Below are positions 3,342 to 46,800 of a DNA stretch of 64,000 nt, piece after piece; within the stretch, counting starts at the first letter, position 1; each line of letters begins with the position of its first letter. The DNA comes from Vairimorpha necatrix (taxonomy: Eukaryota): assembly GCA_036630325.1 (NCBI GenBank), contig CP142737.1:558001-622000 (forward strand), given 5' to 3'. The notes beneath the pieces were generated by a model. It made no database searches. It saw only the letters and a list, made by a program, of their open reading frames with translations, and had not been told where the DNA came from. Both the position numbers and the translations under genes were made by a program.

Positions 3342-4463
3342 TTATGATTCAAATTTTCTCTTTAAAAGTGCATGTTTCTTCAGAAGAACCATATCTCCTA
3401 TTTCCAAGTCATTAGGGTCTGACTTCTTAAGGTTTCGTTCGTTAACCTTTTCTCTTTTCTTATCTTCTACTTCCTTCACATTTTGCTGGATGACATTTAA
3501 TTTCTCTTTCTTCTGTCTTACGTATCCAATTGGATCAACAAAATATAGCTCGAAGTCTTTAGGAATCTCAAGTAGATTACTTGGAATTATCGGCTCTCTA
3601 CCGTATAATAACATAAATGGTGAAGCATTAAAACGTTCTACTATCCCTATCCTATATTGCATCAGCACATATGGGAATACTCTGTCCCAGTTTTGCTCGT
3701 GATCTACCATGGCTTTAGATATTTTTTCTATTATCGTCTTGTTTGTTCTCTCTGCAAGACCATTGGCCTGTGGATGATATGGAGATGAATGTTTAAATTT
3801 AGATCCCCATAGTTCTGCTACTGAATTTACTAATCTGTTTGTAAACTCCAACCCCTGATCACTCCTGATCGTTTTGACCGTTCCATGTCGTGAAAATACA
3901 TCTTCCACTAAAAATCTAGCTATCTCTTCAGCCGATTTCTTTTTTAACGCTTTACCTTCGACCCATTTGGTAAAATAGTCGGTTGCCAGGACAATGAATC
4001 TATTTATCACTGAATGCCCTAATAAGTCTACCCTTTGTGTACAAAACACACTTTTCTCGGTACTTATTTTCAATCCATTCGCTAACAGAACTTGAAGCAC
4101 TTCTTTCACGTCCCTGTGATGTTCTTCGTGTGTTTTACTGTATATGGTAATATCGTCCATATAAACCACGACTTTTGAATTTATTAAATTCCTAAAAACT
4201 CCATACATGAGTCTCTGGGAGGTTGCGGCCGCGTTCGTTAATCCAAAAGGCATCTTACAATACTGAAATTTGCCTACTGGCGACATAAATGCCGTAAGCT
4301 CTTCCGACTCTGGGTCCATCGGTACTTGATGATAACCCTTTTCTAGATCTAACTGTGTGAACCATCTAGCTCCGCTCAGAGAGTTCAGACACTCTTCAAT
4401 CGTTGGAGGTTGGCAAACTTCCTTCGCCGTCCGATTATTCAACTGACGATAATCTATACACAT
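3342..4463 (-). pseudogene. RT fused in frame to a partial integrase core (RNase H and HHCC region deleted)
   Basis: CIDYRQLN, MPFGLTNA, YMDD and LLGHSVI are joined directly to NRFIVLATDYFTKW, SDQGLEF and QANGLAER. Confidence 0.85.
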
Positions 4464-4469
4464 TCTTTG

Positions 4470-11689: not shown

Positions 11690-13140
11690 ACCAAAAAGAT
11701 GGATAAAGAGTAAAGGAACATGGTCAGCCTCGAGATCAATGTCAACAACCCAAAGCCAATTATTATTAAACAATTTGAGATTATAAGTGATATCGAGAAA
11801 ACCAATATGCTATAATGGTTTAGAAATTCGAAGAGCTGTGTAATAAATTGGAATTGGACGAGTAAAAGATTCTCCTAGTACTACATTTAATTGAGGATAA
11901 ATAATGGAAAGGAAGAGGTAGTACTAAAAAAATTATAAAAAATAAAAAGAAAATATAAGTCTCGTATACCCTAATCACTTATTCAACTTTGGGGATTAAA
12001 TTGCTAAATATTAAACAAGAGAAATATGTTTTGATGATAGAGATGTTTGTCGATATCTATGCCAAGCTTGAAGGGGCAGACTTTTTAGAAAAATATACCA
12101 AGAATGAGTATGTGCGAAGATTTACTTCAATTCGTTTGAATGCCTTCTTTGACGCTACAAAGGTTATGTGATGAAATCAAGTACCAATAATGTCAAGGAT
12201 ATTATAGACATATTTGTAAACTTAGAGAAAGAATTGGCAGTCAAAACTTGGAATGACTTAGAGTTATCTAGAAATGCCAAAGTCGAAGTGAATAAACCAA
12301 AAAAGAGAAAGAGAGGAATCTATGGTGTAGCTTGCACAGATCAGGGACTCATAACACCAATGAGTGTTACAGTAAAAATAAAAGAATTGTTAATAAGAAT
12401 AATAAGTTTAAAGCAGATGATTTAAAAACAAATAAAGATCGTAAGTTTTTTCATTGTAAGGTAGTTTTAAAGGAAAAGTCCGAATGTTTAACAGTAAAAC
12501 TTTCAGTATCAATTAATGATCACACTGTAATCGCTATTTTAGATACAGGATGTATCAAAAATCTAATGGGTTTAGAATAGGAGAAAATTGGGGATCATAG
12601 CAAGAAAAGACAGAGAAGTTGGATTTATAATTGACAACGATTATCAGGAAAAATCAGATTAGAAAATAGAAGAAAAAATAAGTATAAAGATTTAAATATA
12701 AACAATGACGTAAGATCACACGTGATAAAAAATTATTGCCAGGTACAATCTTAGGAGTAGAGTTCTTTAGTGTGAATCAAATTATTCTAAATTTTAAAAC
12801 TTAAACAATACCTCATTATAAGAATATTATTAACAAAGTCAACGGATTACCTTAACCATTCGAAGAAAACAAAAATTTATTGATGCTGGCGAGAAGTAAA
12901 AAAATTATTTTTTATAATTCCAATTTAGAATAAATATGTTTTTTGTAAAGAATATAAAAAACGAGATAAACAAAGACTATTTATTCTGAAATTAGAAGAG
13001 CAGGGGCTCTGAGTATTTTGGGGAACTGACCAATGAGGAGAACTTTGATCTTTTAATTAGCAGGCTTAACTCACATATTTTAGATTGGGATTATAGGACT
13101 TTCAAAGATAAAAGGAACGCTGCTTTGACGTATGAAATCA
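11690..13140 (+). pseudogene. Heavily decayed Ty3/gypsy gag-protease(-RT) region
   Basis: ...GGAACA-TGGTCAGCC (LTR end plus PBS-like), HNTNECY knuckle remnant, and protease motif IAILDTGC. Confidence 0.55.
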
Positions 13141-14566: not shown

Positions 14567-15679
14567 GGTGCATCTTTAGTAACGTGCCGGGATTTTGTTT
14601 TTTTAAAAAATATTTTTTTACCCCTAAAATGGACAACATCGATTTAGAAAACTCCGGCACGTTACTAAAGAAAAGCACAAAAATTAAACTTGTGAATATA
14701 CAAAGGCTTTTTTATAACGTTGACACTTGTTTAGAAGCTTTAATTGACTTAGAAGTGCTGAAGGAGCAAAAATCATGTTCCAAATGTGGATGTAACATGA
14801 GATTGGGTCCTGTCAAGGAAGAAATCGTTACAAGAGTAGCATATCGCTGTTCGAACTACAAATGCAGTGCGCGGTTGGCTGTGAATAAAGGCTGCAAGGT
14901 TCCTCTTCATACATTCTGTGACCTTGTATTTGGAATATTATGCAGATATTCTTACTTTCAGTTGATGGCAAGATTGGGCGTTTCAACAGCTACAATCTCT
15001 GCCGTAAAAAGCAGCCTCAGAAAGATCTATAAAGATTTGCTAAAGAATAGAATTATAATCGGAGGACCCGGGCAAGTCGTTCAAGTAGATGAGTCTGTTA
15101 TATGCAGAAGGGGTAAAATAAGATCTCCTACCTCTTCGGACGACTTTATAAGGGACACCGTTTGGATTTTGGGCATAATAGATGCTCAAAATCCTTCAAA
15201 CTTCTATATTACGAGGGTAGAGAATAGAACCATTGAGTGCCTTACTGCTGCTCTAGAGGGAAGAATTTGTGTAGGTTCGGTTTTACATAGCGATGGTCAT
15301 CCTAGTTATCCTGGGGTGGCAGAAAATTTATGTCTAAGTCATCAAGTTGTTAATCATTCTATAGGTTTTTTATCTCCTGATGGTATTCATACAAATAATA
15401 TTGAGAACGTATGGTCTCAACTTAAGTCTGAAATGACCAAAGAACATGGAGTAAAACGGTCGGAGATAGATACATGGCTCGATGAATTTATGTATAGGAA
15501 ATTTATGCTTCGAGAAGATGATATGGGAGACTTCTATAAGGGTTTTGTTGATCTTTTATCTAAACTACTGAATTAAATAAGCATTTTTATATCGTTTTCT
15601 TATTTTTTTCAAAATTTTGTTAAATTTTTGTCTGTAAGGGGGGGGGTGTTACCTTCCGGCACGTTACTAAAGATGCACC
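14567..15679 (+). mobile_element. Merlin DNA transposon, apparently intact
   Basis: 24-bp perfect TIR GGTGCATCTTTAGTAACGTGCCGG. The flanks do not match, so there is no TSD. Confidence 0.93.
14629..15576 (+). CDS. Merlin / ISXO2-like DDE transposase (~315 aa)
   Basis: CCCCTAAA-ATG start, CxxC..C..C N-terminus, and the DDE motifs VQVDES, LHSDGHPSY and HTNNIENVW. Confidence 0.92.
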   Translation: MDNIDLENSGTLLKKSTKIKLVNIQRLFYNVDTCLEALIDLEVLKEQKSCSKCGCNMRLGPVKEEIVTRVAYRCSNYKCSARLAVNKGCKVPLHTFCDLVFGILCRYSYFQLMARLGVSTATISAVKSSLRKIYKDLLKNRIIIGGPGQVVQVDESVICRRGKIRSPTSSDDFIRDTVWILGIIDAQNPSNFYITRVENRTIECLTAALEGRICVGSVLHSDGHPSYPGVAENLCLSHQVVNHSIGFLSPDGIHTNNIENVWSQLKSEMTKEHGVKRSEIDTWLDEFMYRKFMLREDDMGDFYKGFVDLLSKLLN

Positions 15680-15933: not shown

Positions 15934-18900
15934 TGTTGATTATAAATAATAAAATAAATAAACCCCTATTCAATGATAAATCCCTATCTAAACAACATGG
16001 TGGAGAATAATGATCAACCCAGTATAAACAGGAAAAATTTATCACAAGAATTGATGAGATATGAAATATTTAGATGGTTTAAAAAAATGGAATCATTGGA
16101 TAAAATTGAATATGTTTCAAGTAAAGCTAGTTACGAAATAATTGAATGGCATTCAACATTTATGGAACATACAAGAAGTTCCTCTATAACATATGACAAG
16201 TGGAAAGAAGCATTGTATAAAGAATTTAAAGAAGATGAAATTGAACTAGTGGATGTTTACCGCCTTTTTCAGAAAAAGGACCAAAATGCAAAAGATTTCA
16301 TTGATGAAGTTAAGAAGAAATCAAAAGTAGTAAAAATGGACTCAAAAGAATCTATGAAAATTATAATGCTCGGGCTAAGAAGAGAATTTCCAAATTTAAG
16401 AGCCTACATAACGAGCCGTTGTTCTTTTAATGATTTTGACTTTAAGCGAGTTCTAATGATGGAAAAAATTGATAAAGAATTGGGCGCTCCTTAAATTCAA
16501 AATCACAGGGGTTAAAAAAATTAAAAAATTCACGAACATGTATTGTAAACATTCTACAAAAAAATTACAAATGCCCTTATGATTTTGAATTTAAGGAAAG
16601 CGATTTTGTGAATTTTAATTTTTTACCCCCAATGCAAGTTAGAAATCTCTACAACATAATATTTGTTGAAGAAGAAGCAGCTATAGAGTACTTAAAGGCT
16701 TTAAACTTTTACAGAAATACTATAAAGTGTGACTGTGCTTGTTTTATGAACCAAGTAAAATCTAAAAACTACTTGGAAGGAATCTGCTTTTATTGTACAA
16801 ATAGCTTCAAAAAGCGAAAAAGCAATAAAAAGGGCACTTTTCTATAGAAATCCAGGATGATTACGCACATACAACTGAGAATGTTGTATTGCTGGGTGAT
16901 GAAAATGACCAACACAATGGTCTCAGTAACATGTGAGGTCTCCGAGTCCACCTACATTTCTTTTAAGGGCTTTATCCTAGAAAAAATAAAAAAATGAAAT
17001 AAATACATTTTTTGAAAGAATAGGTGGGCCAAGAATTACTATTCAAGTCGACGAGACAGCAATATGTAGAGGTCGTATAATAACAAATCCTACGACAGAA
17101 GAAGACGACATCCCTGGGACGACTTGGCTAGTCGGAGGTATAGAAAATGAAAGCAACAATTGCTTCTTAAAAATAGTTCCTAATAGGACTGCCCCTATAA
17201 TGCTAGATCTATTTAGTGAGTATGAAGTTTAAGGAACTACAATAAGAATTGATGGGGTTGCTTAGTACCGTTCTGCTGTTCGCGATTTCAAATCTGTTCA
17301 TGAAGTCGTTAATCATAGTGTTAGTTTTACTAATGACAATGGACAACATACTAACAAAATTGAGAATCTGTGGAGTCATTTAAAGACCGAATTGAGAACA
17401 AGAAGAGGAATAATCAAGGTAAACATGGAAGGTTTTATATACGAGTTTTAATTTAGATCTAAATATTTAAAAGAGAAGAATTCTGATACTTATGCAGAAA
17501 CTTTTAACAGAATACTCTTGTTAGAATAAATGTTTCTTGTTTTTAATTTTTTTAACCCCTGTGATTTTGAATTTAAGGAGCGCCAAGAATTGAACGATAA
17601 GATAAGGACTATTTTTCGAAAAGAAGAAAAAGGAAATAAGAAATCGGGTCGTAATGGTTTTAAGGAAGTTAGAAGTGATATAATTAAGCAGAAATACGAT
17701 AACAAAAAGCTGCTTCAAATAAATGAAGTCTTAGAAGACTCAGAAGAGATTATCAATAAAGAGAATTTAGTTTATATCGAAGACACAAAATTTTTAGTAG
17801 TATTTGATACAGGATCTAACTACAATTTTATTTCTGACACAGTTAGATTAAAAGCTGGTTTAAAAAGAAGAAAAACCATGTCAAATTGAAATTTAGAACC
17901 TGTCTTGAGGAAACCTTTGAAGTTAAGTATCATGTTTTATGTGACGTTTCTTATAAAAATACGAAATATCAGCTAAAATTTTTTATTTTACCAAAAGTAT
18001 CCAAAGAAAAAATTTTGATTGGAAAAGATGGAATTAAAGTAATGATAAACTCTAAGGATCAGTATGAATGTGAAATAAATACAAGAAAAGACGCTATAGT
18101 TGTAGAGAAAGTATTTAGCTTCCCGAAGAAATTTGAATCTGGAATGGAAGATACGATAAAAAATTTGATAAAAATGAATTATATAGGCCATCGAAGTCTA
18201 CATGGCTAAATAACATTCGCCCAGTAGTAAAACCAGATAACAGTATAAGAATAACACTTAATTTAGTTGCACTAAACAAATTGGTAGAATTAGACAAATA
18301 TAGCCTACCTAATATAGAACACTTGGTATTTAATCTGAGAGACAAAGAATTTTTTACAAAACTGGATTTTAAAGATGGTTTCTTTAACATTCCTCTAGCG
18401 AAAAAGGATCAACATAAAACTGCTTTTCGATTTAAGCATTTCTTGTATGAATGGAAAGTAATGCCAATGGGATTTAAGAGTGCCCCGGCCATATTTCAGA
18501 GATATATGGATCATGTTCTAAAATATGAAATAGGGAAGGCGTGTATCGTTTACGTAGATGACATCTTAATTTTCGGAGAAACAAGTGAGGAACACGATAG
18601 AAACTTATGCAGAGTAATAAAAATATTAAAGGACAACAATCTCAATATCATCGAAAAGAAAACAGTTTCAAAAGTTAATAAAATAAAATTTTTAGGATAC
18701 AATATCGAAAGAAATAAAATATCGGCCGAAAATCGAGAGAAGAAGCTATAAACGAATTTAAAAAACCAGAGAATAAGAAAAAACTTCAAGAATTTTTAGG
18801 AATGATAAATTACAATAGAAAATTTATTCGCAATTATGCAACGGGTGTGAGCCACTATACAATCTATTAAAGCAAGGAGTAGAATTCATATGGACAGAAA

Positions 18901-20376
18901 AACACCAAAACAGCTTCGAAAAAATTAAAGGAGCTATTAAGTAAACAAATAGAGCTACATCAGCCAAATTATAATCTGAATTTTATCCTGGAAACAGATG
19001 CTTCAAACACAGGTCTAGGTGCTATATTGTCCCAGGTCGACAAGGGAGTCAAGGTCCCAATCGCATTTGCTTCAAGAAGTCTAAATCCTCCCGAAAGAAA
19101 TTATTCAATAAGTGAAAAAGAATGCCTAGCTATGCTATGGGGAATGGAACATTTAAATACTATCTATATGGAAAGGAATTTACTGCTATTACAGATCATA
19201 AGGCCCTGGAAGCACTTAACAAAGGAGAAATTAAATCTGAGAATCCACAGATGGCTAGATTGATTTAGCAACTTTATATTTAAAGTGATTTATAGAAAAG
19301 GTGAAGAAATGTCACACGTGGACGCTCTTAGTAGGAGCTTTGAAGGAAAAGAAAATATTGTTAACGAAGTGAAGGAAAGTGAATCTATATCAGAACAAGA
19401 AAAAATTAAATTAATATTCGAAAAGCATAAAGAAATGCTACATAGAGGCGCAAAAACAATTATTTATAATTAGAAAACGAATATAAATGGCCTAATATCA
19501 AATCGCTAACCAAAAAGGCAATAGCTGACTGTACCATATGTAAGATGTATAATCCGAAGAAAAACAAAAAATTTATATTCGTAACAGCGTATTCTCCAGG
19601 CGAAAAGGTGGGAATAGACATTATAGGTTCTATAGACAAAAATTATATAATAACAGGATTAGATTACTACACCGGAAAGGGATTTGCTAGGTGTATTAAC
19701 GATAGGTCTGGACAAAAATAGCCCAATTTATAATGGAAATTAATAAAGAGTTACCAATAAAAACGCTTATTTTGGATAGCTCAAAAGAAAATTTAAGCAA
19801 CTGTGTTAAAAATGTTGCAAATACAAATGATATCAAGTTACACTACACGACACCATTCCATCATCAATCGAACGGAAGAGTGGAAAGGTTTAATAGAACT
19901 CTACAAGAGATGGTATATAAAAACGAAAGTGACAAGTTTTTAAAAACAAAAGTAAAGAAAGCTATTCTAATTTATAATAATTCTTATTACGTTGGGTTGG
20001 GATGTACACCAAACGAAGCCTTAGATAAAGAATATGCAGAAACGGTTAAAAAAACACAAATAACAATATATTAAATTATTCAAAAGCAACAAAGAAATTG
20101 CCCAAGTAAGAGGTCTTTACCGTTGGGAATACGGTCTTAATAAAGAACGAAAACATGACAAAGGGAACACCGAAGTATTGGAAAAGGGGGTGTGTCTTAA
20201 GTGAATTGAAGGAGATTCATATTTAATAAAAATTGGCACCAAGTCTTACAAAAGACATGCTTCGCAACTGAAAAGACTTGTGGACAAGGAGCTAATTCTA
20301 TAAGGAGAGGGATGTTGATTATAAATAATAAAATAAATAAACCCCTATTCAATGAAAAATCCTCATCTAAACAACA
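15934..20376 (+). mobile_element. Ty3/gypsy LTR retrotransposon with 64-bp LTRs, decayed gag-pro-RT-RH-IN
   Basis: LTRs at 15934-15997 and 20313-20376 with 3 differences, TSD ATAAC, PBS TGGTGGAGAAT (tRNA-Ala-like) and PPT AAGGAGAGGGA. Motifs VFDTGSNYNF, YVDD, TDAS and QSNGRVERF are present. Confidence 0.95.
16483..17584 (+). mobile_element. Merlin inserted in the gag of the 15934 element (transposase pseudogene)
   Basis: ~45-bp TIR GGCGCTCCTTAAATTCAAAATCACAGGGGTTAAAAAAATTAAAAA, TSD AAGAATTG, and motifs IQVDETAICRG and HTNKIENLW. The gag frame resumes after the insertion is removed. Confidence 0.93.
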
Positions 20377-23185: not shown

Positions 23186-26100
23186 TGTGTTTATCATAAT
23201 GATGGGTTAAAATTATCAAATCAATAACATTCCCCTCTAAGATGGTTAGTCTAACTTTATCCATAACTCAAGCAGACTTTTTAGATCAAAGTGCCTTTTC
23301 TTTACATATCTTCAATTTACTAGCCTAACTACAAAATAATCTTTGCCACATCTCTCTATAACTTTTCTAATCTTTAAAAACCCACCTTTCGAATATTAAT
23401 CCACACCTTTCAAGTTTCCCTTCATAGCTATTCTCACGCACTCACCTACATAAAAATTTTCTCACTTCTCCTTGTCAAACAGTTTTCCAAATTTCCTAAG
23501 TGAGCTATTTTCAATCATTACATAACCAGTTTTATGTTCCTTCGCTTCTATTGGTGCACATTTTAGTGCTGTGTGATAACTCATATTATTTTTTCAATAC
23601 TTCTATGATCTTCTCTGCAAATGTACCAGCTTTGGTCTTCAGAATGCTCTCTCGCAGCGTACCTATAACCCTCTCAACTCTACCATTACTCCTGTACGAT
23701 TCGACACTTACTTTCCTATGTTTAATTTTTAGTCTGTTGAACAACTCCTCTAAGCCCTTCATTGATAAATTCTCACCCATTATCTGCTATAATCTCTTCG
23801 GGCTTTTTTCCTCGTTCACACAACTTACTTTTAAATTCTGTCACATTCATTCCGGCCTTGTTCACCATTGCCGTGCTTCGTACTCTTCGTGTGAAATAAT
23901 CTATCGCAACCAATACATATTTACCTGCGTCTCTTAAATTAATGAGATTCAAAGCACCCTTTTCAAAAACACGTCGTGTATATCAAACTCAAATCCACAG
24001 AGTCTTTTTATATTTTTTATTTGACACTGTAGACACTTTCGAATTGTCTCATTTATGTCTTTTTTATTTCGGGCCAATAAAACCTTTCCCGCATCGCGTA
24101 ATATACAGTTGTCATACATCTGTGTCCAAATTTTACGTGGTATTCCGGCATCGAACTCTTACTTATCTCTTCTGGCGGTATTTAGACTTTCCGTCCCAAA
24201 TCAAATCTCCAGTATTTTTTTTCTGCGTCCTCGAAGTGCGCTTTCCACTTCACTCTATCTGCTTGGTGGTCCTTTCTCTGATTTTCTTTTCATTGGATTC
24301 CATATGTATCCTACTTAATGCGTTAGCCCCCACCGTTTCTTCTGGTATTTATATTCTATGGTGAAGTCAATTCCTAATCTTTTCAATCAATCTATTTATT
24401 CTTGTTATTAAAACACGGTTTATTTCTAATCTCAATTAGGGGCTTATGGCCCGTCTCTATTTTAGACCCTAACGTGCAACCCGTTTTCAAATATTTTTAT
24501 CCATCGTAATACCGCGTACGTTTATTTCTCCAATATGTACATCTGGTCTCTGTAGGTGTTAACTTTTTGAGCTCCATTGTATTGCTACCCATCCAACTTT
24601 CTCGAACCACTAAAGTAACACAGCTCTTATTCCTACATTGCTCGCATCTGTTCGCAATATATATTCCTCCTATGATTTGACAGTCTAAGTTTCCCATCGC
24701 TTATAAAACATCTTCGGCTCTACTAACTCTGTTCATTTAGCCGTCCATTCCCAATATTTATCTTTACCTCTCAAGTTATCTGTCAGATAAATATTAATGC
24801 CGGTATTCTTTATACAGTACTTAATCCTTTTGTCATTCCTAGAAATTCTTGTGTTTTCCTTACACTTGTTGGCTACGGAAATTTCAACTCCCCGTTCTTC
24901 TTTATTTTATTTGCTTCAATATCTGTGCCATTCAATGTGACTTCTAAGAGCTTAACTAACTGTTGGCAAAACTGTGTCTTCTCAAGATTTAATCAGATTT
25001 AATGCCTTTTTAATCTTTCTAAAGCTTCCATTACTAGCTTGTCATGCCTTCATTTGGTTCTAGCATGTATAACGATGTCGTCCATATATACCTCCACTTC
25101 TTCTCCTTGTAAATCTTCAATTATTTTGTTCATTATTCATTGTAATATCTGCGGGGAATTTTTATATGATTTTAATACTGTTTCATTCATATAACTTTCT
25201 GTTAATTTTAAAGGTTGTTTCGTGCTTGTCCGCTTCTTCAATCTCTACGTGGTAAATCCTCTTCTTCAGATCTATTACGGTAAACCATTTAGACCTCTGT
25301 GTGACTCCAATGTCGTCCCTAATACTTGACAACTCATACGGATCTTTTTTTTTCAAGTCATTAAAACTCATTAGATTACTCACAAACCTAACTCCTCCGT
25401 TAGGTTTTACTGCAGCCCTAATTACGTTCCTCAACTCGGATGTTTATCTTCTTATAGTCTTTTTTTCTTCTGAACTTTTTATGTATTTTTCAGTATTCTC
25501 CGTCAATGCCCGTGGAAAAGTTTGTCCTCTTTTAACTATTTTCCCCCAAGTGGCGTCTCAATTTTACATTTCTCATTCTTACAGTGTAAGATCTCTTCCT
25601 GCCGTAGGTCAAAAATCTCTTTGAACTTAGCCTTTATATCTTCAATGAAAACCCCCTTTTTTTCACCTTCTTATTCCTTTACTTTCTACTTTTTGCTAAT
25701 CCGCATTTCATATATTATTGAGCGCTAAGTCCTGTGCTTGTAGATTCACTCTTTTATGAACACTTAAATACGGGTTAAAATTTTATTTTTATTAACTTCT
25801 TTACAAAGCAATCTCTCGCCATGTGCCCGAATCCATCACAGTAAAAACAATCTCTACTTCTTACTTTCGTGATTTCTTCCCTTATTTTTCCTAATGCTTC
25901 TTTATTTGTCAGCTTCTCTCTAACTGTTCCTCTAACGACTCTGCTATTATTTCCCTCGTCCTATATGTGTCTTCTTCTTTAATTCGTCCTTTCTAACCTT
26001 CTTTTCTATTTCTTTAATAATTAAGGACCATCTATCTTCTTCCCTTTATATTCTTTCTACCATAAGGTTCTTTACTTCCTCCGATACCATTGAATAAATT

Positions 26101-28268: not shown

Positions 28269-30507
28269 GTTTAATTTATATTTGCTAAAAAGCATTTAGG
28301 CAATTTGTCATAAGAATAACACAATGAGTAATAAACAATCTTCGAATAAAACATCTTTTTCTAAAAAGCCCAGTATTTCTTGTCTTTGGACTAACACGAC
28401 AACCATTATTTCGAACAGCCCTTAAGCCAATTTTTCTTTTGGCTTATCTGATGCCGTTCCCCCATTCAAAAAATAAATATCCCTCTACATACACATAAAA
28501 GAATTTCTTTTAAATATTTAACATGCTTTACACAATCTATTAATTTATTTGAGACCCGAACTTAGTCTAATTTATATAATTTACGGTTTTAAAACTTTTT
28601 AATATTTGAGCAATTCACATACCTTTTTTTTCATAACTAGCAAAATATATCATCTTGCTTCTTAATCTTATTTTTTAACGTCCCTTTCTTCTTTCATACA
28701 GCAATTCACCATGTTTATAGTCTCTACTTACAGATAAACTTTGATTTTATTTAAGTAGTTCATTTTCGATTGTTGCTCTATAACTTCTTAATAAATAATC
28801 TGGTCTCATGAAATTTTTTTAAAATGTCTTAGTTGATAAATATAACTTCACTAACAAACTTTCCTTTATCCTTCCCCATTCTATTTTTTTCTTAAACTAT
28901 TTCACTATTTTAAAATTAAAATTTGTAAATACATACATTAAAATATATTTTCTTTCTGCTGCCTTGTAAAATATAACATTACCCGGTAGATTTTTTATTT
29001 CGTCTAGTAAATAAAGAAAGGAAAAAAAAATATAAATTAACATAACAAAATAAAAACTTAAGGTTTTCTTATTACAAAATTTCTTTTTAAGACAAGACGT
29101 TTGTTTTTACTCTGCGCACCTTCTACATTCATATTTAAAATAAATATTCCGCAATTTTAATTAAAGGCAAGTATGTCACAGACTACTCTAGTTGCAGCTT
29201 TTTTCAATATAATACACATCTTTTTCACGCTAGATTTCTGTTTCAATCTACTTTTTGTATTTTGTACATTTGATATTAATTGACCTCATTATTTTGTGTT
29301 TTTTATTTACCACTATAAAAATCAAGTATAAAGGTCAGACATTCCAATCCCGACCCCTTTTGGTATCTCCTACCATAATAAAAAAATTACAGCTTGTAAG
29401 AAATACTTTTGAGAATGTAATTAAAAGAAAATTCCAACTTTTTGTAAATCAGGGCATACATTATTCTATTTTGCCTAAAAATAATTTCTTATGGGATAAC
29501 TCGAAGGGATCATTGCTAATTTGATCACGCTCATACTTTATAGATCATATACAACATCTATTAAAGCACAAATACATGCAAGAGTCTGCAAAATAACTTT
29601 TGACCCCTGATTTCCTTCAGACATAGTATTGATACCTCAAAAGGAACATACAAACCCTTATGAAAAAAAGTCTGACTCCTTTTAAGAGCGATACTGCATA
29701 TAGAAAGTATCCTCTATAGAAAATTAAGCTTTAAAGTCATATATTGCCTTCAATTTTGTCATGTTTTTTTACTTATGTTATTCAGATTTCCCCCTTATTG
29801 TTGTGGTTTATTTCAAGGGATTATTATATCTATAGCATTCTATCTCAATCAATTCCCCTTTATTTATAACCATTAAATAGGTTTTTTCGGTGCGGTTAGA
29901 AAGATACTATTTTTAATTATACCAAGTATCTGGGATGTCATGATTATTTATTATTGTTTTGCTCTAAAGCTTACTCCTTTACGGTATATATCTTATAAAA
30001 AAACATGTGCCGCTTTATTTTCTTTATTTCTTTCGCATTTAACGACATCATAAATTATAGGACTTTTTGCAAAAAAAGTACAAAAGAGGCTTGATTTTCA
30101 CTTTTAATGATTTTTTGTGTCCATACTTTTTTTCCTATGAAAAGTAAAGACATTAACCATGCAAGAACATATTTAAATAAACATTAATTAGTTTGCTATT
30201 TTTTTGCATTTTACAGATATTACAAATTATTAAGTTATTCTTTCTAGAGATTTTTGTTTTTTTTCTATATAATAGACAAAGTTAGAACTAAGTATTTTTT
30301 TTGAATTTGAGATATAGTAATTTTGAAATATTTATTCAACGAAACTAATAACTTTTCGTAAATTATCTATCCCACAGTTATTTAATGATTAATTGTGAAT
30401 TTTCAGAGTTTAAAAAATAGGATATAAAAATAGCAAAGGATAACTTTTACTAACAAAAAAAAAGAAACCCCCCCCCATTGCTGTATAATTTTGTATTCTA
30501 TATCTAA

Positions 30508-30556
30508 TGTGTTTATTTTCCATAATGAGGGGTAAAAATAATAAGGATATATAACA
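30508..30556 (-). repeat. 3' LTR (49 bp)
   Basis: TGTTATATATCCTTATTATTTTTACCCCTCATTATGGAAAATAAACACA on the minus strand, identical to 33643-33691. Confidence 0.95.
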
Positions 30557-30583
30557 TCCCCCCTCCAAGACGGTAGTCTCATA

Positions 30584-33500
30584 CTAGAACTCATTAATCC
30601 CAAGCAGACCTTTTAAATCATAATGCCGCTTTTTCACGATCCTACCATTTTCCAAACTAACTAAGTACGAGTCACCTCCGCAAACTTCCTTGATAACACC
30701 ATATCCTAAAAACCTTCCTTTCTCATACTTACTACAACCCGATAAGTTCTCTTTCTTCGCTATCCTAACTCTCTGACCTTTATAGAATTTCTCTCTTTTG
30801 CGAGCCACAAACCTCCTACTATAAAATCCTTCAGGTCCATTCTCGATCATAACATGGCCCGTTTCGTCTCTTGAGGCCTCAAACGGTGTACATCTCAACC
30901 CTTCATGATAGCTGTTATTATAACGCCATATACATCTATTAACCTTGGCTTCAAAATCCACAGCATCATCTTTCAATATTCCTTCTCTTATGGTTCCTAT
31001 TACCCTTTCCACTCTTCCATTACTTCTATGACTTTCTACGCTTACTTTCCTATGTAATACATTTTCCTCTGAACACCAATTCCTCATATATTCATTACTA
31101 AATTCTTTACCGTTGTCAGTAATTATTTCGACCGGTTTCATTCCTGATCCACACAACTGTTTTAAAAATCCTACAACCGAGCTTCCGCGTTTGTCCTCTA
31201 TTACTTTTCCCCAAACGATCCTAGTATAATAATCAATCACGACCAACACATATTTCCCTAAATCTCTAAACTCAATCAAATCCAAAGCAACCTTTTCCAA
31301 ATAAAATCTTGAACTAACAAAATCACAACCACCACTCTTTTTCCTATTATATATTTGGCAAACTTCACACTTCTTTAAAACATCCTCGATATCCTTCTTC
31401 ATACCCGGCCAATAAAATTCAAACTTCATTGCATAGTACACTGATCCTAAACTTCTATGTCCCAAATTTTCATGAGCATTGACAATTAAACCTTCACGCA
31501 ATTCTTTCTTTGGAATCTCCGCTTCTCTACCAGAGTCAAATACCCAAATTTCCTTCCCATCAACAACTTTAACATGCTTGTCCCATTTACCCTGTGCCTG
31601 TTTAATACTTCTCTCCTTATTCATTAGCGTTTTCTCATTTTCATGTACCCTACTCAGTGCATCTGCTACAACCATGGTACTAGGCTCTCTATATTCAATG
31701 CTAAAGTCGAACTCTTGAATCTTTTCAATCCACCTGTTAATTCTATTATTGTTAAATGCTGGTTTATTTCTAATCTCGATCAATGCCTTATGATCAGTTT
31801 CTACCCTAAATCTTCTTCCGCGTAGTTCATATTCAAACTTTTTAATTCCCCAAAAGACTGCATACATCTCCTTCTCACTGATTCCATATCTCGTTTCCGT
31901 AGGCGCAAACTTTTTTGATGCCCACTGTACTGGTACCCAATTACCTTGATCATCTTCCTGCATTAAAACAGCACCCATTCCAACATTACTCGCATCCGTG
32001 CGTAACAAAAATTCCTTATTATAATTAACAATTGCTAAACCTTTTAAATCCCTAATCACTTCCCTTAAACTAATATATTCTTTTTCCATTTCTTCTGTCC
32101 ATTTCCAATTACTTCCTCGTCCTTTAAGAGAATCCGTCAACGCCAATGTACGTTTTGCATAATTATCAATATGATTTCTAAACCATCCAGCCAGCCCAAG
32201 AAACTTCCTAACATCTGATACACACTCCGGTTTGGGAAATTCTAACGCTTCATTTTGCTTTATTTCAGATGGCAGTATCTCCTTGCCATTAACTGTTACT
32301 CCTAACAACATCACCTCTCGTTTACATAATTGAACCTTAGCCAAATTAATTTTCATACTATTCTCCTCTAATATATCCACAGCCTCTTTCAACAATTTGT
32401 CGTGACCCTCTCTTGTCTTACTATGAATTACAATATCGTCCATATAAATTTCGATTCCCTTACCAATAAATTTTTCAAAAATCCCATTCATTATTCTTTG
32501 TAATATCTGCGGTGAGTTTTTAAACCCCATGACCATCGAATTCCACTCGTATACCTTTTTATTAAACTCAAAAGCCGTCTTAAACCTATCCTTCTCTTCA
32601 ATCTCAATACTATAAAACCCCTCCTTTAGATCTATCACGGTAAAAAATTCAGATCCCTGTGTACTTCTAATAACATCTCTTATCCTAGTTAACTCATAAG
32701 GATCCTTCTCTACAATGTCATTAAGAGCAATTAAATTACTTACTAATCTTATATCACCATTCGGTTTCTCAATCGCTCTAATGGGATTTCTCCAGTCAGA
32801 TGTCGACCTTCTAATTATCTTTCTTCTTTCCAAACTATTAATATAATCTTCCGTCTTCTTCAACAAAGCCTGAGCTATAGCCTGCCCTTTTTTAACAACT
32901 TTCTTGCCTTCTTGAGTCTTGATAATACATTTTTCAACCTTACAAAAACTAATATCTTCATCCTCTCTTCCTCCTACCCGTGAAATAATCTCCTCTAAAT
33001 ACGCGATGCCTCTTACATCCCTTCTCAACAGAACTCTCTTATTATTGTCCCTTTTGCTATAATCTTGTATATCCCCTGAATTTTTCTTCTTACGTTTCCC
33101 ACCATCAACATTATAATAATCACATTTGTCCGAATTGGAATCGTCATCACATTTACCCTCTAAGTCTAATTGCACTTTACATTTACCAACATAATTAAAA
33201 CTACTTTTATTTCTTCTGTCTTCAGAATCTCGCCTCATTCCCCTACAAAATCTAACACTATGGCCTAACTTCCCACAATTGTAGCAACGCATATTCTTTT
33301 TATTTTCCTCACGAGACAACTTATTCTTCTCCTCAAATTTAGCCCATAACGCTAGGGACAACTCTTCAAATTCTTTTTTTCGACCTTGTTCCTTTTCCTC
33401 CTGAATAGCTAGCAACTCTAATTTTTCCTTAATTTCCTTCCAACTACCCTCTTGCGAGATCCTCTCAACAATAAAATTTCTCAATAAAATAGAACCTCTC

Positions 33501-33658
33501 CTAAAAATTTCTAATTTAAATCCACACTCATCAATTTTCTCTAAAAACAACTCATAAACAATCCTTTTAACCTCTTTTAATAATATTCTAACCTCTTGGC
33601 CACGGTCCTCCTTTGTAGACCCATTTTCTGGTATCGCCCCCATGTGTTTATTTTCCAT
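30584..33658 (-). CDS. Single Gag-RT-RNaseH-integrase polyprotein (1024 aa), no recognisable protease
   Basis: CYNCGKLGHSVRFC knuckle, YMDD, RTDAS/EKE/TDH RNase H motifs, H..H..CEVC, and the DDE motifs ALDL/TDNGKEF/NGRVER. No D[TS]G lies between the knuckle and RT. Confidence 0.95.
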   Translation of the reverse strand: MENKHMGAIPENGSTKEDRGQEVRILLKEVKRIVYELFLEKIDECGFKLEIFRRGSILLRNFIVERISQEGSWKEIKEKLELLAIQEEKEQGRKKEFEELSLALWAKFEEKNKLSREENKKNMRCYNCGKLGHSVRFCRGMRRDSEDRRNKSSFNYVGKCKVQLDLEGKCDDDSNSDKCDYYNVDGGKRKKKNSGDIQDYSKRDNNKRVLLRRDVRGIAYLEEIISRVGGREDEDISFCKVEKCIIKTQEGKKVVKKGQAIAQALLKKTEDYINSLERRKIIRRSTSDWRNPIRAIEKPNGDIRLVSNLIALNDIVEKDPYELTRIRDVIRSTQGSEFFTVIDLKEGFYSIEIEEKDRFKTAFEFNKKVYEWNSMVMGFKNSPQILQRIMNGIFEKFIGKGIEIYMDDIVIHSKTREGHDKLLKEAVDILEENSMKINLAKVQLCKREVMLLGVTVNGKEILPSEIKQNEALEFPKPECVSDVRKFLGLAGWFRNHIDNYAKRTLALTDSLKGRGSNWKWTEEMEKEYISLREVIRDLKGLAIVNYNKEFLLRTDASNVGMGAVLMQEDDQGNWVPVQWASKKFAPTETRYGISEKEMYAVFWGIKKFEYELRGRRFRVETDHKALIEIRNKPAFNNNRINRWIEKIQEFDFSIEYREPSTMVVADALSRVHENEKTLMNKERSIKQAQGKWDKHVKVVDGKEIWVFDSGREAEIPKKELREGLIVNAHENLGHRSLGSVYYAMKFEFYWPGMKKDIEDVLKKCEVCQIYNRKKSGGCDFVSSRFYLEKVALDLIEFRDLGKYVLVVIDYYTRIVWGKVIEDKRGSSVVGFLKQLCGSGMKPVEIITDNGKEFSNEYMRNWCSEENVLHRKVSVESHRSNGRVERVIGTIREGILKDDAVDFEAKVNRCIWRYNNSYHEGLRCTPFEASRDETGHVMIENGPEGFYSRRFVARKREKFYKGQRVRIAKKENLSGCSKYEKGRFLGYGVIKEVCGGDSYLVSLENGRIVKKRHYDLKGLLGINEF

Positions 33659-33691
33659 AATGAGGGGTAAAAATAATAAGGATATATAACA
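33643..33691 (-). repeat. 5' LTR (49 bp) containing the polyprotein start codon
   Basis: Identical to 30508-30556. The ATG at 33658 is preceded by CCCC. Confidence 0.95.
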
Positions 33692-34676
33692 TCTAAATTA
33701 TTATGGAAAGTTAAGTATTAGTTTTGTTTTTCTGTAGATACTTATGTAATTGTATTTTGTGTATTATGAATGGTTTGTCGAACAATAGAATTATATTGGA
33801 AACACGTAAACACAAGAACATATTACGAAATATGAGGAGAAAAAATGTGCATGTTATAAATTTGTGTTATTAACGTTACGTTTATATTCAAAACAAATAC
33901 ATTACATATTTTGCTCTATACGCCATTATTATATACTTGCATTGGTTCCTGAACTTAGTGAAATTTAAAATAAAGAAATTATGAAGTTTTAAAAATAAAC
34001 ATTACTTTATAAAATTTTTTAGTTGTATGGGGTTTAGTTATAACACACATTGCGACAAGGTATTAGCTTTAAATGTATTTGAAAATTATGAGTATAAATA
34101 GGGCCCTAAAACAAACATGATTGCAAATAAACGTTTTTTCCGCTGTATTCGATTAATTTTTTTGCGACATTTTAAAAATACACTCAAATTTTATAAGGAT
34201 TAAATAGTGTTAGATATTAATTTAATTTTCAATCAAATAATATAGACAAGGGTAATAACCAGCGATTAAGTTTTATTAGTTGCATATAGGACAATTAATA
34301 AACGCATTTGTTTTTATACGCTCTGTACAATTATAATAATAATAAATTGATTTTGTTGAATATGCTAGATTTAATTTAAAGTATTTAATCATCAATCTAG
34401 TTCTATTTTTAAACTGGAGGTTTTAATTTACTTTTAGTAAAATCAAAAGATATGGTCTTTTCAGCTTTTTTGTATCAAATAAAATGAAACAATAAAAAAT
34501 TAAGACTGGTACATAACTGTAATTGACTATACTTTCTAATTATTTATAAATTTAAATATTGTATTTTGCTTTATATTATTAGTTAAATTTCTTCAAAATT
34601 CAATTTGGTTATTCTTTTAAATTGAATTTTTTAAAAAAAATTATTGCGAATAAATTATTTAAACGGAGGGGTGACT

Positions 34677-41476: not shown

Positions 41477-42454
41477 GGAAGCAGGGGGCCACTTTGGTCA
41501 AAAAAATGGTATTAAGCGAATTTGTTTTTTTACCCCAAAAATGAAAAGTCGAGAGGAAGAGCTCTTGAACATCTTTACAACAGCAATTCAAAATAAGACT
41601 GTAAAGTGTCCAAAATGCGATGCTTACTGTAAAGTAAGTAATAAAAATAAAATAATGACTAAATGTGTTTGGAAAGCATGTCGGAGGAAAGTGTCATTAT
41701 TAAAAGACTCTCCATTTTATTACAAAAAAACAAATATTTTAGATGTTTTGTTAATAATAAAATTATGGTCTTGTAAGGTTAACCAGACTGCTATAGGAGA
41801 ATTTCTTGATATTGGTAAAAGATGTATTCGACATATCATAAAAAAAACAATTTCTACAATTGAAAATAAAGTATACGAACGAACTGGTAAAATCGGTGGA
41901 CTAGGAATAATAGTAGAAATAGATGAAAGCAAATTTGGCAAAGTAAAATACCACAGAAGACATCGGGTTGAAGGTATTTGGGTTTTGGGGATGGTTGAAA
42001 GAACCATCCAAAGAAAGATAGTTATGATTCCAGTCGACGATAGGAAAGTCAAAACACTAGAAGAAATAATTAAAAATTATGTTCACTCCGAATCAATTAT
42101 ACACAGTGACTGCTTCAAGTCTTATTTTAAGTTAAAAGACTATTTTGCTGAACACAAAACTGTTAATCATTCATTGGAGTTTGTAAATAATTCCAATAGA
42201 TGTCATACTAACACAATTGAAGGAAATTGGAGTGGATTAAAAAATGAGACTTCGGCAAGACACAGAACCAGAATATTGATTACTGGTTCGTTGATAAGAT
42301 ATATGTTAAGAAGGAACTTTGAAGGTGATTTATTTACGAATATTATTAAATTTATTTTTTCTTCCTTTTTTGCCGTTTTGACTTTCCAAAAAAGGGTCTT
42401 TTTTTAAAAAAAAATATTTATACCATTTTTTTGACCAAAGTGGCCCCTTTAACC
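41477..42454 (+). mobile_element. Merlin (inner, nested)
   Basis: TIR core GGGGCCACTTTGGTCAAAAAAATGGTATTAA and TSD AAAAGATA on both sides. Confidence 0.92.
41541..42407 (+). CDS. Merlin DDE transposase (288 aa), open frame
   Basis: CCCCAAAA-ATG start, CPKC..C..C, EIDESKFG, HSDCFKSY and HTNTIEGNW. Confidence 0.9.
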   Translation: MKSREEELLNIFTTAIQNKTVKCPKCDAYCKVSNKNKIMTKCVWKACRRKVSLLKDSPFYYKKTNILDVLLIIKLWSCKVNQTAIGEFLDIGKRCIRHIIKKTISTIENKVYERTGKIGGLGIIVEIDESKFGKVKYHRRHRVEGIWVLGMVERTIQRKIVMIPVDDRKVKTLEEIIKNYVHSESIIHSDCFKSYFKLKDYFAEHKTVNHSLEFVNNSNRCHTNTIEGNWSGLKNETSARHRTRILITGSLIRYMLRRNFEGDLFTNIIKFIFSSFFAVLTFQKRVFF

Positions 42455-43862: not shown

Positions 43863-46800
43863 TGTCGAAGGAGCTAACAAGCATAAAGTTTTATTCAATA
43901 ATTATTATAAAGACACCATTATCCACCTCTAAAGCCTCTTATCGGTTAACTACTTTAAATTTTAAATTTTTTTGAAGAATTAAAATTTAAAAGCTGAGCG
44001 TGATTACGCTTAACCTCTTTTCAGTTGTTAAAACATAATAAGAATCACCTTCTGGGATTTCTAAGATCCCCCATCAAATACGTATTTATTATCTGCTATG
44101 GCAAATGATGTATTAGTATTAATGTCTTGTGATAGTACATATTCTCCAATCTCAAATTTTTCTCTTTTAACGACTTAATTTCCTTCTCGTATTTCATTCT
44201 TTGCGCTTCTTTTTCTTCTAGTGTAATTCTATTTTCCCACATCTCATTTGGTTTACACCTAATACCTCTGTACAGGTATTATTAAATCTTTTAACTATAT
44301 CTGGTGAACTTCTTTGCAAATTATATTTAAGTTCTTCTAAAAAATTCTTTTTATATAATCTGCTATACATATCTATTTAGTCTTTCGACTCTTTCGTTAA
44401 ACTGATGTTTTCCCGGGCTTATATTATGAACTATAATCGAGTTTTCTCGCAACACATTAAGAACTATTTCGATATTATTCCTCTACCATTGTCTACTATA
44501 ATTTGTTTCGGAAGTCACCACTCTTCAAAATATTTTATTATTTTTACAACGATTCCTTGTTCATTTTGTTCTTTAGATATTTTTACTAACTTTTCTTGTG
44601 TAAAGATCAATACATGTAAGTGTGGGTATATTCTGCTCTAGGAATAAAAGGTTTATGCTAATCTTTTCCAATTTGTAATTTGCTTTCACAAGCTTTTCTC
44701 CTCCTTGTGTCTTTTAGAGATTGCATTGGCAAGGTTACAACGTTTTAAGTATTGAGCAATTGATTCGTTCAAGTTTAGGCCAATAATATTTTCTCTTTAT
44801 TGCATAAATCAGTGCATCTTTTTCACGGGGGGTTTGTAAGTTTTTCGTGTGCTTCCTCTTGAGCACTAATCTATCTTCGCCTGGCGGGAAGAGCTTTGTT
44901 TCTGTGTTGTTTACTTTATAGTACCAGATACCTTTAGAATCGATGAGTACATTTTTTGGCAGTTATAAGTCGTAAGTTTGGTCCAACGTTTCATAAATTT
45001 AACTTAACACATCAGCCTCAATAATTTCTATGCCTTTCTTATATTGTATTGTGAAGTCATAACTTTAAAGTTTCTCTCTCATTCGTTCTAATTTCATATT
45101 TCCAAATATATGTTTTATTTTAGCAAGCGTAAGGGCGGGTTGATCGGTTATTACTTTACATTTAAAATCTTTTAAGTATAATTCATAGTGTTGTCTTCCT
45201 CAAGCCATAGCTAAAAATTCTTTCATTGTTATTGTATATTATTTCTCTGCTTCAGACAGCCTTTTGGATGCCCAATCTTTAACTATAAGTTCGCCATCTT
45301 TTTTTTGTTATAGGCAAGCTCCTATTCCTGTATATGAGGCCCTGTATTTAGGACAAATGGGTTTGTGAAGGCTGCTATATTTATTGAAATGTTAGAATTT
45401 ATCTTTAGTTTTATGTTGCTAAAGGCTTCCTCGCGTTCTTTAGTCCATAAGACCTTTGAGTGCTTCATATAATGGTTGTGAGATTGTTGCTAGGTGTGCA
45501 ATATATTTTCTATTGTAATTTGCAAATCCAAAAAATTTTTGTAAATCTTTTTTGGTTTTTGGCGTTTTGAAATCCAATATCTTTCTCTGGTGTTCTCCTA
45601 TTGGCCTCTGAGTTGACTCGTTGATCATAAATCCTAAAAACTTTACCGTTTTGCTTTTATATTGCATTTTAACTGATTTAACTTTAAAATTATTATCTGC
45701 GAGCCTTTGAAGAACTTCTGATAAGTTCTGGTCATATTCTTTTTCTGTTTTTCCATATACTATTATATCGTCCATATAAACCATACATTTAATTTCAATA
45801 ATATCACTAAAAATATTATCCATTATCATTTGAAAGATTGCTGGTGAATTTTTTAGGCCAAAGGGCATTCTCATGTTTTGTACAAATTATTTTTAAAATA
45901 AAAGGCTGTTTTATATTTATCTTTAGGGTCAATTTTTATTTGGAAGGAGTTGTCTGATAGATGATAAAAAATGTAAAAATCTTTTTGCCCTGTGTCATAT
46001 TAATAATTTCATTTATTTTTGGGATCGTGTAATTGTTGTCCTCTACGATTTCGTTTAACCATTGCATATTACAGGCTATTCTATATTTCCCATTAGGTTT
46101 TTTTACTGGGTGCATAGGATTGCACCATAATGAGGTTGATCTTTTTATGTAACCTAAAATTGAAAAGTTTTGTAACTGTTTTTTGTGTACCCTCTAAGTC
46201 ACATTGTGGTATGTTCCAATTTTAATGTTGACTTTTCACCTTCTTTCTATCTATTGTGCACATTATTTTAATTTATCCTTCAGATGGTTCATCATTAAAG
46301 ACTTACTTAAATTTTATCTAAAGCCCTCCTATCTCATGTCTCGATTTTTGGACATTTACAATCGTTGGGTTACCAATCAAAAGAGAATTGATTCTTTTTT
46401 TCATAATGTTAATATGGTCGTTATTTGGATGTGATTTATTTTCACAGTTAATTCTACGTATTCTGTCAGAATATTTTCTTGTCCAAAAATGTTTGTTATC
46501 GTAATCTCTTTCGTCTCTATGTTAAGAAATCCTTTTTCTTCAACAAGCTTCCTACTAATTAAATTTAGATCGCTACCTGTATCTACCACTGCATTTATTT
46601 TATCTCCAGCAAGAAATACTTCCGTAGTCTTAACTTCTCCTAATAATGTTTGTAGATTAAAAATCAAAAATCTTTCCAAATGCAATTTTTGTTCTTCTTT
46701 CAGAGGTTGTTTATTGGTTCTTATCTGCTCAATGTTCCGAGCTTGAGGTTTTCTTATTTTATGATTTTCTCTTTTAATATTATCAATTCTCTTCTCCTTA

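Follow-up and report, generated by a model that had tools for sequence, protein, structure and literature searches.

A stretch of 64,000 nucleotides of the Vairimorpha necatrix genome (contig CP142737.1, here called the window) contains a long terminal repeat (LTR) retrotransposon whose single polyprotein (P0001, 1024 aa) has no aspartic protease. Retroviruses and LTR retrotransposons are taught to need such a protease of their own for Gag-Pol, a step that protease inhibitors exploit. The element occupies positions 30508-33691 of the window in minus-strand sense (3,184 bp, by reading of the sequence and a repeat search of 30300-33900), and its pol has the Ty3/gypsy order of reverse transcriptase (RT), RNase H and integrase (IN), all three matched in Pfam. 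The retropepsin is absent from the whole clade to which the element belongs and, judging from the trees described below, the protease-less architecture is a trait of the lineage and not a one-off deletion.

P0001 matched no aspartic protease family in Pfam, even at E ≤ 1, and neither did the clade members P0009, P0011, P0022 and P0031 at E ≤ 0.5. As a control, seven of seven protease-bearing sisters (P0054, P0056, P0060, P0061, P0062, P0065 and P0067) matched an aspartic protease family over its full length, if weakly (E 1e-3 to 6e-5). The motif hydrophobic-hydrophobic-D-[TS]-G-[AS] occurred in none of the 60 proteins P0001-P0060. Loose D[TS]G triplets ahead of RT in P0007, P0011 and P0047 stood in non-hydrophobic contexts, and from P0061 on the motif was present, about 48 aa past the zinc knuckle and about 250 aa ahead of YxDD. 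A custom protease hidden Markov model (HMM), built from 28 relatives, picked out the protease of at least 18 proteins outside its seed at E < 1e-3 (P0059, for example, at E 1e-14). In P0001-P0053, P0055, P0057 and P0058 its best match had an E of 0.75 and lay in the wrong place, the integrase of P0026. When run on the six-frame translation of the window, the same model found nothing inside 30508-33691 and three protease remnants elsewhere (Table 1).

The region between knuckle and RT offers little space for the enzyme. In P0001, 124 residues precede the knuckle (the earlier note had estimated about 120), and 105 residues lie between its last Cys and an invariant Cys in the RT leader (C244), 71% of them D, E, K, R, S, N, Q or G. 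We made two AlphaFold models, one N-terminal (residues 1-300; 40-row alignment) and one full-length (27 rows), and in both the linker at 141-216 was disordered (pLDDT ~30-44), with no retropepsin fold. Among 27 aligned clade members the distance between the same two Cys residues was 56-134 aa (median 74), of which about 30 aa is the conserved leader itself (L..EYP.VF...I.FC..EK). Given this short span minus the leader, a retropepsin of roughly 100 aa has too little room in most clade members. The description in the earlier note, of a protease-less element with a low-complexity linker that lacks a hydrophobic-D[TS]G motif, thus agrees with Pfam, the relatives' HMM, the motif search and both structural models.

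That the element still encodes a protease which escapes recognition, through divergence or because it belongs to another class, is in our view very improbable. The sister proteases do already score weakly in Pfam, some with DRG or DAG at the active site, and P0001 has a V-D-G-G at residues 183-186, in a low-confidence hairpin. However, the D of this VDGG varies even among the nearest homologs, the linker is predicted to be disordered and measures only 56-74 aa in half of the clade, the family-specific HMM came back empty, and the full-length model contains no unassigned folded domain.

To place the element, homologs were collected by a word-index search, in which 839 of 8000 candidates scored had E ≤ 0.001 and 120 were listed. 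All 120 share the pol of P0001, including proteins named Tf2-9, 17.6 and rice Ty3/gypsy polyprotein, and the closest of them are proteins of ~1000 aa on contigs of ~3.0-3.2 kb. The close homologs among these 120 that carry a species name are all microsporidian (Nosema granulosis at 80% identity, Vairimorpha necatrix at 58%, Enteropsectra breve at 48% and Nematocida ausubeli at 41%, the last partial); the others are unnamed or labelled as metagenome-assembled genomes (MAGs). Trees were built from the RT-RNase H-IN core of the 76 proteins that have the whole core, with no Ty1/copia or BEL outgroup. Proteins were scored as protease-bearing at HMM E < 1e-3, as protease-less if at least 150 aa preceded the core and there was no match, and otherwise as N-truncated.

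In the quick tree (76 rows), P0001 belonged to a clade of 39 rows (SH-aLRT 99), of which 33 were protease-less, 6 were N-truncated and none had a protease. The careful tree was limited to 48 rows, the 8 truncated ones, near-duplicates and several outgroups having been dropped from the 76, and gave a protease-less clade of 23 rows with an ultrafast bootstrap of 100 and SH-aLRT of 99, or of 24 rows at 85/55 when P0057 is added. Its sister is a 5-row protease-bearing group (100/100), both lie in a 29-row clade (100/99), and a 10-row protease-bearing clade adjoins that. Nosema granulosis, Vairimorpha necatrix and Enteropsectra breve are the named members of the protease-less clade, which is diverse, with full-length identity down to about 40%. 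The simplest reading of these trees is that the protease was lost once, at the base of the clade. Loss rather than gain is suggested by rooting on distant protease-bearing elements and by general knowledge of the family. By its pol phylogeny the element is thus placed in a derived Ty3/gypsy lineage, although by domain content it would not count as a canonical member. The protease-less lineage that the earlier note had proposed is therefore recovered by both trees.

That the element is an isolated product of internal deletion, or only looks intact and is in fact a dead relic, we consider barely credible. Deletion derivatives do exist, such as a variant in public run X2 that lacks 31454-32714 and has about a quarter of the full form's depth, and a neighbouring Ty3 element (open reading frame, ORF, 3342-4463) has RT fused to rve with no RNase H. 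Against this, the same architecture recurs in dozens of full-length homologs, divergent but united in one clade, the ORF is unbroken, the catalytic residues are invariant, the changes between copies are mostly synonymous, and the LTRs and the target-site duplication (TSD) are identical. Both trees rule out a one-off deletion. Near-identical copies with a protease, which the earlier note had said would mark this as a deletion derivative, did not turn up; no row of the clade was scored as protease-bearing, and the family contigs of the public runs had no longer variant.

A few rows of the trees deserve separate mention. Among the distant outgroups, P0119 was scored as protease-less in both trees, and P0091, P0113 and P0120 in the quick tree; P0091 and P0120 have sub-threshold matches to the protease HMM (E 0.0026 and E 0.14). 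Inside the clade, a subgroup of 3-4 rows (P0047-49 and P0051) is also without a knuckle and has low-complexity sequence at the position of the sisters' protease. In the sister group, the proteases of P0054 and P0059 have D-R-G and D-A-G as active-site triplet in place of D-T/S-G (alignment A3, columns ~240-250), and some of these proteases may be inactive or unusual.

The loss of the protease is accompanied by a shortened Gag. Ahead of the knuckle, the protease-bearing sisters, whose Gag is roughly double in length, have 176-262 aa, compared to 99-179 aa (median 133) in the protease-less clade. A profile of the clade's N-terminus (25 sequences) aligned by hhalign with the sister-clade Gag (10 sequences) over 63 columns (96.5%, E 9.5e-10), while its alignments to two other groups fell short of significance (4.8% and 1.4%). 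In the sister P0061 the Gag core region has a weak Pfam match to Retrotrans_gag at 44-128. Residues 21-89 of P0001 can be superposed on one lobe of the Arc and Ty3 capsids (4x3x, 7r24, 7r1z) or on the C-terminal domain of Rous sarcoma virus (RSV) CA (3g26), with Z 6.1 and an rmsd of 2.9 over 65 residues for 4x3x (Arc C-lobe) and Z 5.5 for 3g26, values within the noise of the VIA-align list, where generic helical proteins score up to Z 6.8. P0001 has one lobe only, followed by a 50-residue helix that those proteins lack. Foldseek of the 1-300 model against the PDB gave no match at E ≤ 0.001, and the capsid-lobe superposition had a TM of 0.54. We call the N-terminus a probable one-lobe capsid remnant on the basis of its homology to the sister-clade Gag, the fold match being weak.

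A phmmer search with the first 240 aa against 1.84 billion representatives returned 36 matches at E ≤ 0.001 (4 at E ≤ 1e-10), all of them fragments of the same architecture or bare zinc knuckles; neither a wider family nor a form with Gag and protease split off was among them. As a lead only, the nearest clusters in the ESM Atlas were small zf-CCHC, Retrotrans_gag and Ty3_capsid proteins (0.90-0.94).

The catalytic motifs in the rest of the polyprotein are intact. Pfam placed zf-CCHC at residues 124-138, RVT_1 at 296-456, RT_RNaseH at 546-650, Integrase_H2C2 at 717-772 and rve at 792-870. The zf-CCHC match was weak (17.8 bits, compared to a cut-off of 20.8), but the pattern C-x2-C-x4-H-x4-C (C125, C128, H133 and C138) was invariant in 27 of 27 aligned sequences. 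Also invariant in this alignment (A4; P0001 and 26 full-length homologs) were YMDD, the integrase zinc ligands H729, H734, C764 and C767, and D793, D848 and E884. Thus the ORF listing, Pfam and the catalytic columns all bear out the unbroken 1024-aa ORF with intact RT, RNase H and integrase motifs that the earlier note had described. In the full-length model, RT, RNase H, integrase and a C-terminal beta domain were confident and every folded domain could be assigned; the beta domain, which follows the integrase core, may be SH3-like. Only two stretches were disordered, 141-216 at the junction of nucleocapsid (NC) and RT, and 665-676 at the RNase H/IN junction. Mean identity of P0001 to the 26 homologs was 47-65% in pol, 23% in the Gag remnant and 14% in the linker. 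A loose N-K-x(2-4)-N-[YF] stretch (150-157 in P0001) lies 7-28 residues past the knuckle in 18 of 39 clade proteins and, loosely defined as it is, could be a short linear motif.

An exact recount gave the same boundaries as the earlier note for this 3.2-kb element, and the identical LTRs, the exact TCTAA TSD and the polypurine tract (PPT) were all read in the sequence; to these we add the length of the LTRs, which is only 49 bp. The ORF takes up 96.6% of the element, with no second ORF of at least 80 aa within 30300-33900. Its TAG stop is separated from the 3' LTR by 27 nt, the final ten of which are GGAGGGGGGA. On the sense strand the 5' LTR reads TGTTATATATCCTTATTATTTTTACCCCTCATTATGGAAAATAAACACA, with TATATAT at positions 5-11, an A/T run and then ACCCC at 24-28, ATG at 34-36 and AATAAA at 40-45. 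The ATG at 34-36 is the first of the ORF, so translation starts inside the 5' LTR. A second in-frame ATG, which is conserved, consists of the final A of the LTR and the TG of the adjoining TGGGGGCGATACCAG, the putative primer binding site (PBS). Homologs frequently have an M-A or M-G pair at residue 6-7 or at the very start, which in our reading would correspond to the LTR-terminal CA joined to the TGG of the PBS.

How could so short an LTR work? For E. cuniculi, one study describes 5' untranslated regions of <7 nt, a CCC-like motif just before the start codon with an AAATTT-like signal ahead of it, and use of AAUAAA; its strings from upstream of Nosema ceranae ribosomal-protein genes include AATTTTTTTTACCCCACAA (PMC2803860). 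The ATTATTTTTACCCCTCATT-ATG of the LTR is similar to these Nosema ceranae strings. By analogy, the 49-bp LTR may be a minimal microsporidian promoter (an A/T run and CCCC a few bases before ATG) that also carries AATAAA. If this is right, U3 would be <30 nt and R at most ~20 nt, and U3, R and U5 together would amount to only tens of bases. That short LTRs are general in the clade is only suggested, by the ~3.0-3.2 kb contigs with ~1000-aa ORFs. A metagenome scan for relatives' DNA yielded two loci (L001 and L002; 47% identity, degenerate 830-aa ORFs), with no terminal repeats there or in L007. A scan of genome contigs yielded 61 loci, all eukaryote-like retroelements in bacterial or archaeal MAG bins and none useful for LTRs. 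Among the loci, L003, L004, L007, L010, L013, L034, L047 and others are eukaryote-type Ty3/gypsy polyproteins on short contigs binned as Clostridium or Turicibacter, some of them near the protease-less clade (L004 66%, L034 45% and L007 40%); most likely they are microsporidian or other eukaryotic contamination.

Copies of the element are also present in public data, where 20 runs from 13 studies contain all or part of the sequence and 4 runs contain at least half of the sampled words. Runs X1 and X16 each gave a contig of 3,165 nt, with 10 and 89 differences, respectively. This length is the 3,135-bp repeat period plus 30, as expected from a k=31 assembler with collapsed LTRs and an element that closes on itself. 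No longer variant was found among the self-closing 3,165-nt family contigs of the public runs. In run X2 the LTR ends adjoin several different sequences, and X2, X15 and X16 do not cover the flanks that the element has in the window, which fits many insertion sites. Among the 40 of 128 variant sites that were listed, 28 were synonymous and 12 non-synonymous, and P0002 differs from P0001 at 19 of 1024 residues; we take these figures as signs of selection on an active element. The earlier note's claim of a recent insertion rests more on the intact ORF, the TSD and the copies elsewhere that are 97-99.7% identical than on LTR identity, as a pair of only 49 bp has little dating power by itself. The X2 variant mentioned above lacks 1,259 bp of RT/RNase H, has 34 other letters in their place, and has a depth of 9.7, compared to 39 for the full form.

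How does an element of this kind replicate? Of the LTR/integrase route, everything except the protease is in place: the LTRs and PPT, a putative TGG-type PBS, the enzymes RT, RNase H and DDE integrase, and a TSD of 5 bp. With confidence just short of even, we favour the reading that this is a recently active copy of a microsporidia-specific Ty3/gypsy branch that lost its protease and about half of Gag once, compacted the remainder and uses an uncleaved polyprotein. The polyprotein would work as a single chain with no element-encoded cleavage. Binding and gathering the RNA of the element itself would fall to the capsid-lobe remnant, the long helix and the CCHC knuckle, and the long disordered linker would tether RT-RNase H-integrase, which would make and insert the DNA copy. 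The product would be a ribonucleoprotein (RNP) instead of a matured capsid. An uncleaved chain is favoured by the age and breadth of the clade, by the fast-evolving linker in which no site is established and by the parallel shrinkage of Gag, a hint that the element has given up building a closed capsid that matures. The wider proposition, that a whole long-lived and active lineage replicates as one uncleaved, RNP-forming chain and that capsid maturation, which is regarded as one of the defining steps in retrovirus-like replication, is dispensable to it, we advance more tentatively still.

Several points weigh against this reading. Protease mutants of Ty1, Ty3 and retroviruses are defective, and replication with an uncleaved polyprotein would be out of the ordinary. 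Protease-bearing Ty3 families are found alongside the protease-less clade (P0069 in V. necatrix, P0059 in Enteropsectra breve and ORF 4470-5963 in the window itself). None of the 24 runs listed is on record as RNA, the 64-kb window contains no tRNA gene to set against the putative PBS, and, as noted, the capsid-lobe superpositions do not rise above those of generic helical proteins.

The co-occurrence raises the alternative that the element parasitises the retropepsin of co-resident Ty3/gypsy families in trans, with the linkers 141-216 and 665-676 as cleavage sites, which we judge less likely but a serious rival. Ty3 protease remnants lie in the same 64 kb, one of them in an open 497-aa ORF (RVP_2 E 1.3e-12); the sister clade and the next clade out bear proteases and come from the same kinds of samples; both kinds of element are found in V. 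necatrix and Enteropsectra breve; and the two predicted disordered segments fall exactly at the NC/RT and RNase H/IN junctions. On the other hand, the specificity of another family's enzyme would have to be matched throughout an old and diverse clade (~40% identity) with a fast-evolving linker (14%). Furthermore, no conserved cleavage-like motif is established, a loose N-[YF] after the knuckle being found in only 18 of 39 proteins, and the co-occurrence comes from two named genomes only, those with several matches each. Cleavage at the disordered linkers by a protease of the microsporidian or of the infected cell is more doubtful again. Two indirect arguments speak for it, namely that long accessible linkers should be readily cut and that the clade has persisted in distant microsporidia, but the sequence points to no specific site. 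Of the three modes that the earlier note had named (uncleaved, host protease, protease in trans), the uncleaved polyprotein is our preference.

Among well-studied systems, Ty3 of Saccharomyces and Tf1 of Schizosaccharomyces need a retropepsin for maturation and have a two-lobed capsid and LTRs of hundreds of bp; Tf1 has a single ORF. The element has in common with them the RT-RNase H-IN order, a CCHC nucleocapsid, TG..CA LTRs and a 5-bp TSD, but lacks the retropepsin, the two-lobed capsid and LTRs of such length. In its manner of working it may be compared to the ORF1 proteins of LINEs, which combine a coiled coil with an RNA-binding or CCHC module; they also place a long helix beside a nucleic-acid-binding module and are not processed by a protease of their own. 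Unlike LINEs, it uses LTRs and a DDE integrase and not target-primed reverse transcription. DIRS and Ngaro elements likewise have RT and RNase H and no protease, but they use a tyrosine recombinase and have split or inverted repeats, in contrast to the DDE integrase and simple direct LTRs seen here. Membership in DIRS/Ngaro was rejected, as Pfam found rve and Integrase_H2C2 and no recombinase. A non-autonomous element of the LARD/TRIM type was rejected as well, since RT, RNase H and IN are all intact and their catalytic residues invariant.

Related elements have been described in microsporidia. Parisot et al. 2014 reported three microsporidia-specific Ty3/gypsy groups with a single polyprotein (PMC4202319), which resemble P0001 in their Ty3/gypsy-type pol, fused gag and pol and diversification within Microsporidia. 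The term 'protease' is absent from the main text of that paper, and its passages on these groups give no LTR lengths (PMC4202319). According to the summary of Xu et al. 2006 in Williams et al. 2008, 'nearly all' Nosema bombycis elements have Gag, protease, RT, RNase H and integrase (PMC2474625). These Nbr elements are, like P0001, Nosema-type microsporidian LTR retrotransposons with one polyprotein, but have five domains compared to four and a half-size Gag here; the wording 'nearly all' leaves room for an exception. The relevant passage of a 2026 genome paper bears on the fused ORF only (PMC13174016). We found no description of a protease-less Ty3/gypsy lineage, although an earlier mention is possible (in Xu et al. 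2006 or in supplements), and no report of LTRs as short as 49 bp. Elements of this kind are known as such, then, while the lack of a protease, the half-size Gag and the 49-bp LTRs appear to be undescribed.

The clade amounts to a natural test of whether the enzyme is indispensable, as it seems to have done without a protease through long diversification across Microsporidia and continues to multiply. This means either that reverse transcription and integration have no intrinsic need of cleavage, or that retroelements can rely over long periods on proteases of other families or of the cell. In both cases the element sets out a minimum of parts with which an LTR element can be autonomous: a length of 3.18 kb, LTRs of 49 bp and a half-size Gag. 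If the polyprotein is indeed uncleaved, it would be close to the minimal autonomous LTR retroelement. It also shows to what extent microsporidian genome compaction extends to the microsporidians' own parasites. In practice, LTR finders with a minimum LTR of ~100 bp and classifiers that require a protease will miss or misfile such elements in microsporidian genomes.

Table 1. Features of the protease-less element, and protease remnants elsewhere in the window (window coordinates).
Feature	Position	Strand	Remarks
TSD TCTAA	30503-30507		3' side in sense orientation; same as 33692-33696; read from sequence
3' LTR, 49 bp, TG..CA	30508-30556	-	100% identical direct repeat; same promoter-like and AATAAA signals as 5' LTR
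PPT GGAGGGGGGA	30557-30566	-	abuts 3' LTR; putative plus-strand primer, from its position
Single ORF, 1024 aa (P0001)	30584-33658	-	Gag-like N-terminus, CCHC, linker, RT, RNase H, integrase
C-terminal beta-rich domain, residues 951-1024	30587-30808	-	AlphaFold strands 963-1017, pLDDT mostly 65-84; conserved in homologs
Integrase HHCC zinc domain and DDE core, residues 677-950	30809-31630	-	Pfam Integrase_H2C2 E 1.2e-13, rve E 4.8e-10
RNase H, residues 531-664	31667-32068	-	Pfam RT_RNaseH E 7.7e-32
RT and N-terminal leader, residues 217-530, YMDD 405-408	32069-33010	-	Pfam RVT_1 E 2.3e-31; pLDDT 81-94 from 220
Disordered charged linker, residues 139-216	33011-33244	-	retropepsin position in relatives; pLDDT ~30-44, two AlphaFold models
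CCHC zinc knuckle, residues 125-138	33245-33286	-	Pfam zf-CCHC E 0.0036; AlphaFold pLDDT 83-88
Gag remnant, helices 19-39, 44-54, 57-66 and long helix 73-122	33293-33604	-	AlphaFold pLDDT 94-98 (residues 19-122)
Putative PBS TGGGGGCGATACCAG, TGG-type 15-mer	33628-33642	-	abuts 5' LTR; translated within ORF
5' LTR, 49 bp, TG..CA	33643-33691	-	repeat search, exact recount
TSD TCTAA	33692-33696		read from sequence
Ty3 protease remnant, ALLDTGAS	4866-5150	-	protease HMM, six-frame
Weak protease remnant, AILDTGC	12500-12571	+	
Ty3 protease remnant, VVFDTGSN, with stops	17758-18038	+	protease HMM; pol remnant adjoins at 18152-20020
Ty3 protease remnant, AVVDTGSD	46401-46625	-	protease HMM; pol remnant adjoins at 44588-46148

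The window contains further mobile elements. The three other Ty3 families in which the earlier note had seen LDTG, FDTG and VDTG correspond to the three HMM-detected remnants of Table 1. The first of these lies in a Ty3 element at 3342-5963 (-) that is split in two ORFs. The ORF at 4470-5963 is the one with the strong retropepsin match, and in the ORF at 3342-4463 the rve core follows immediately on RT without an RNase H match, which suggests an internal deletion. This element is a possible source of protease in trans. At 23270-25600 (-) there is a degraded copy of a family related to that of P0001, seen as tblastn pieces in shifted frames that are 31-56% identical to residues 253-1019; the protease HMM found no protease upstream of it. 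The ORFs at 14584-15576 (+) and 41541-42407 (+) matched DDE_Tnp_IS1595 (E 2e-12 and 3e-15), the transposase of Merlin-type DNA transposons, which Parisot et al. describe as abundant in microsporidia (PMC4202319). Finally, a lysine-rich low-complexity repeat (KKIKKK..) at 58039-58225 (-) gave only noise with the protease HMM.

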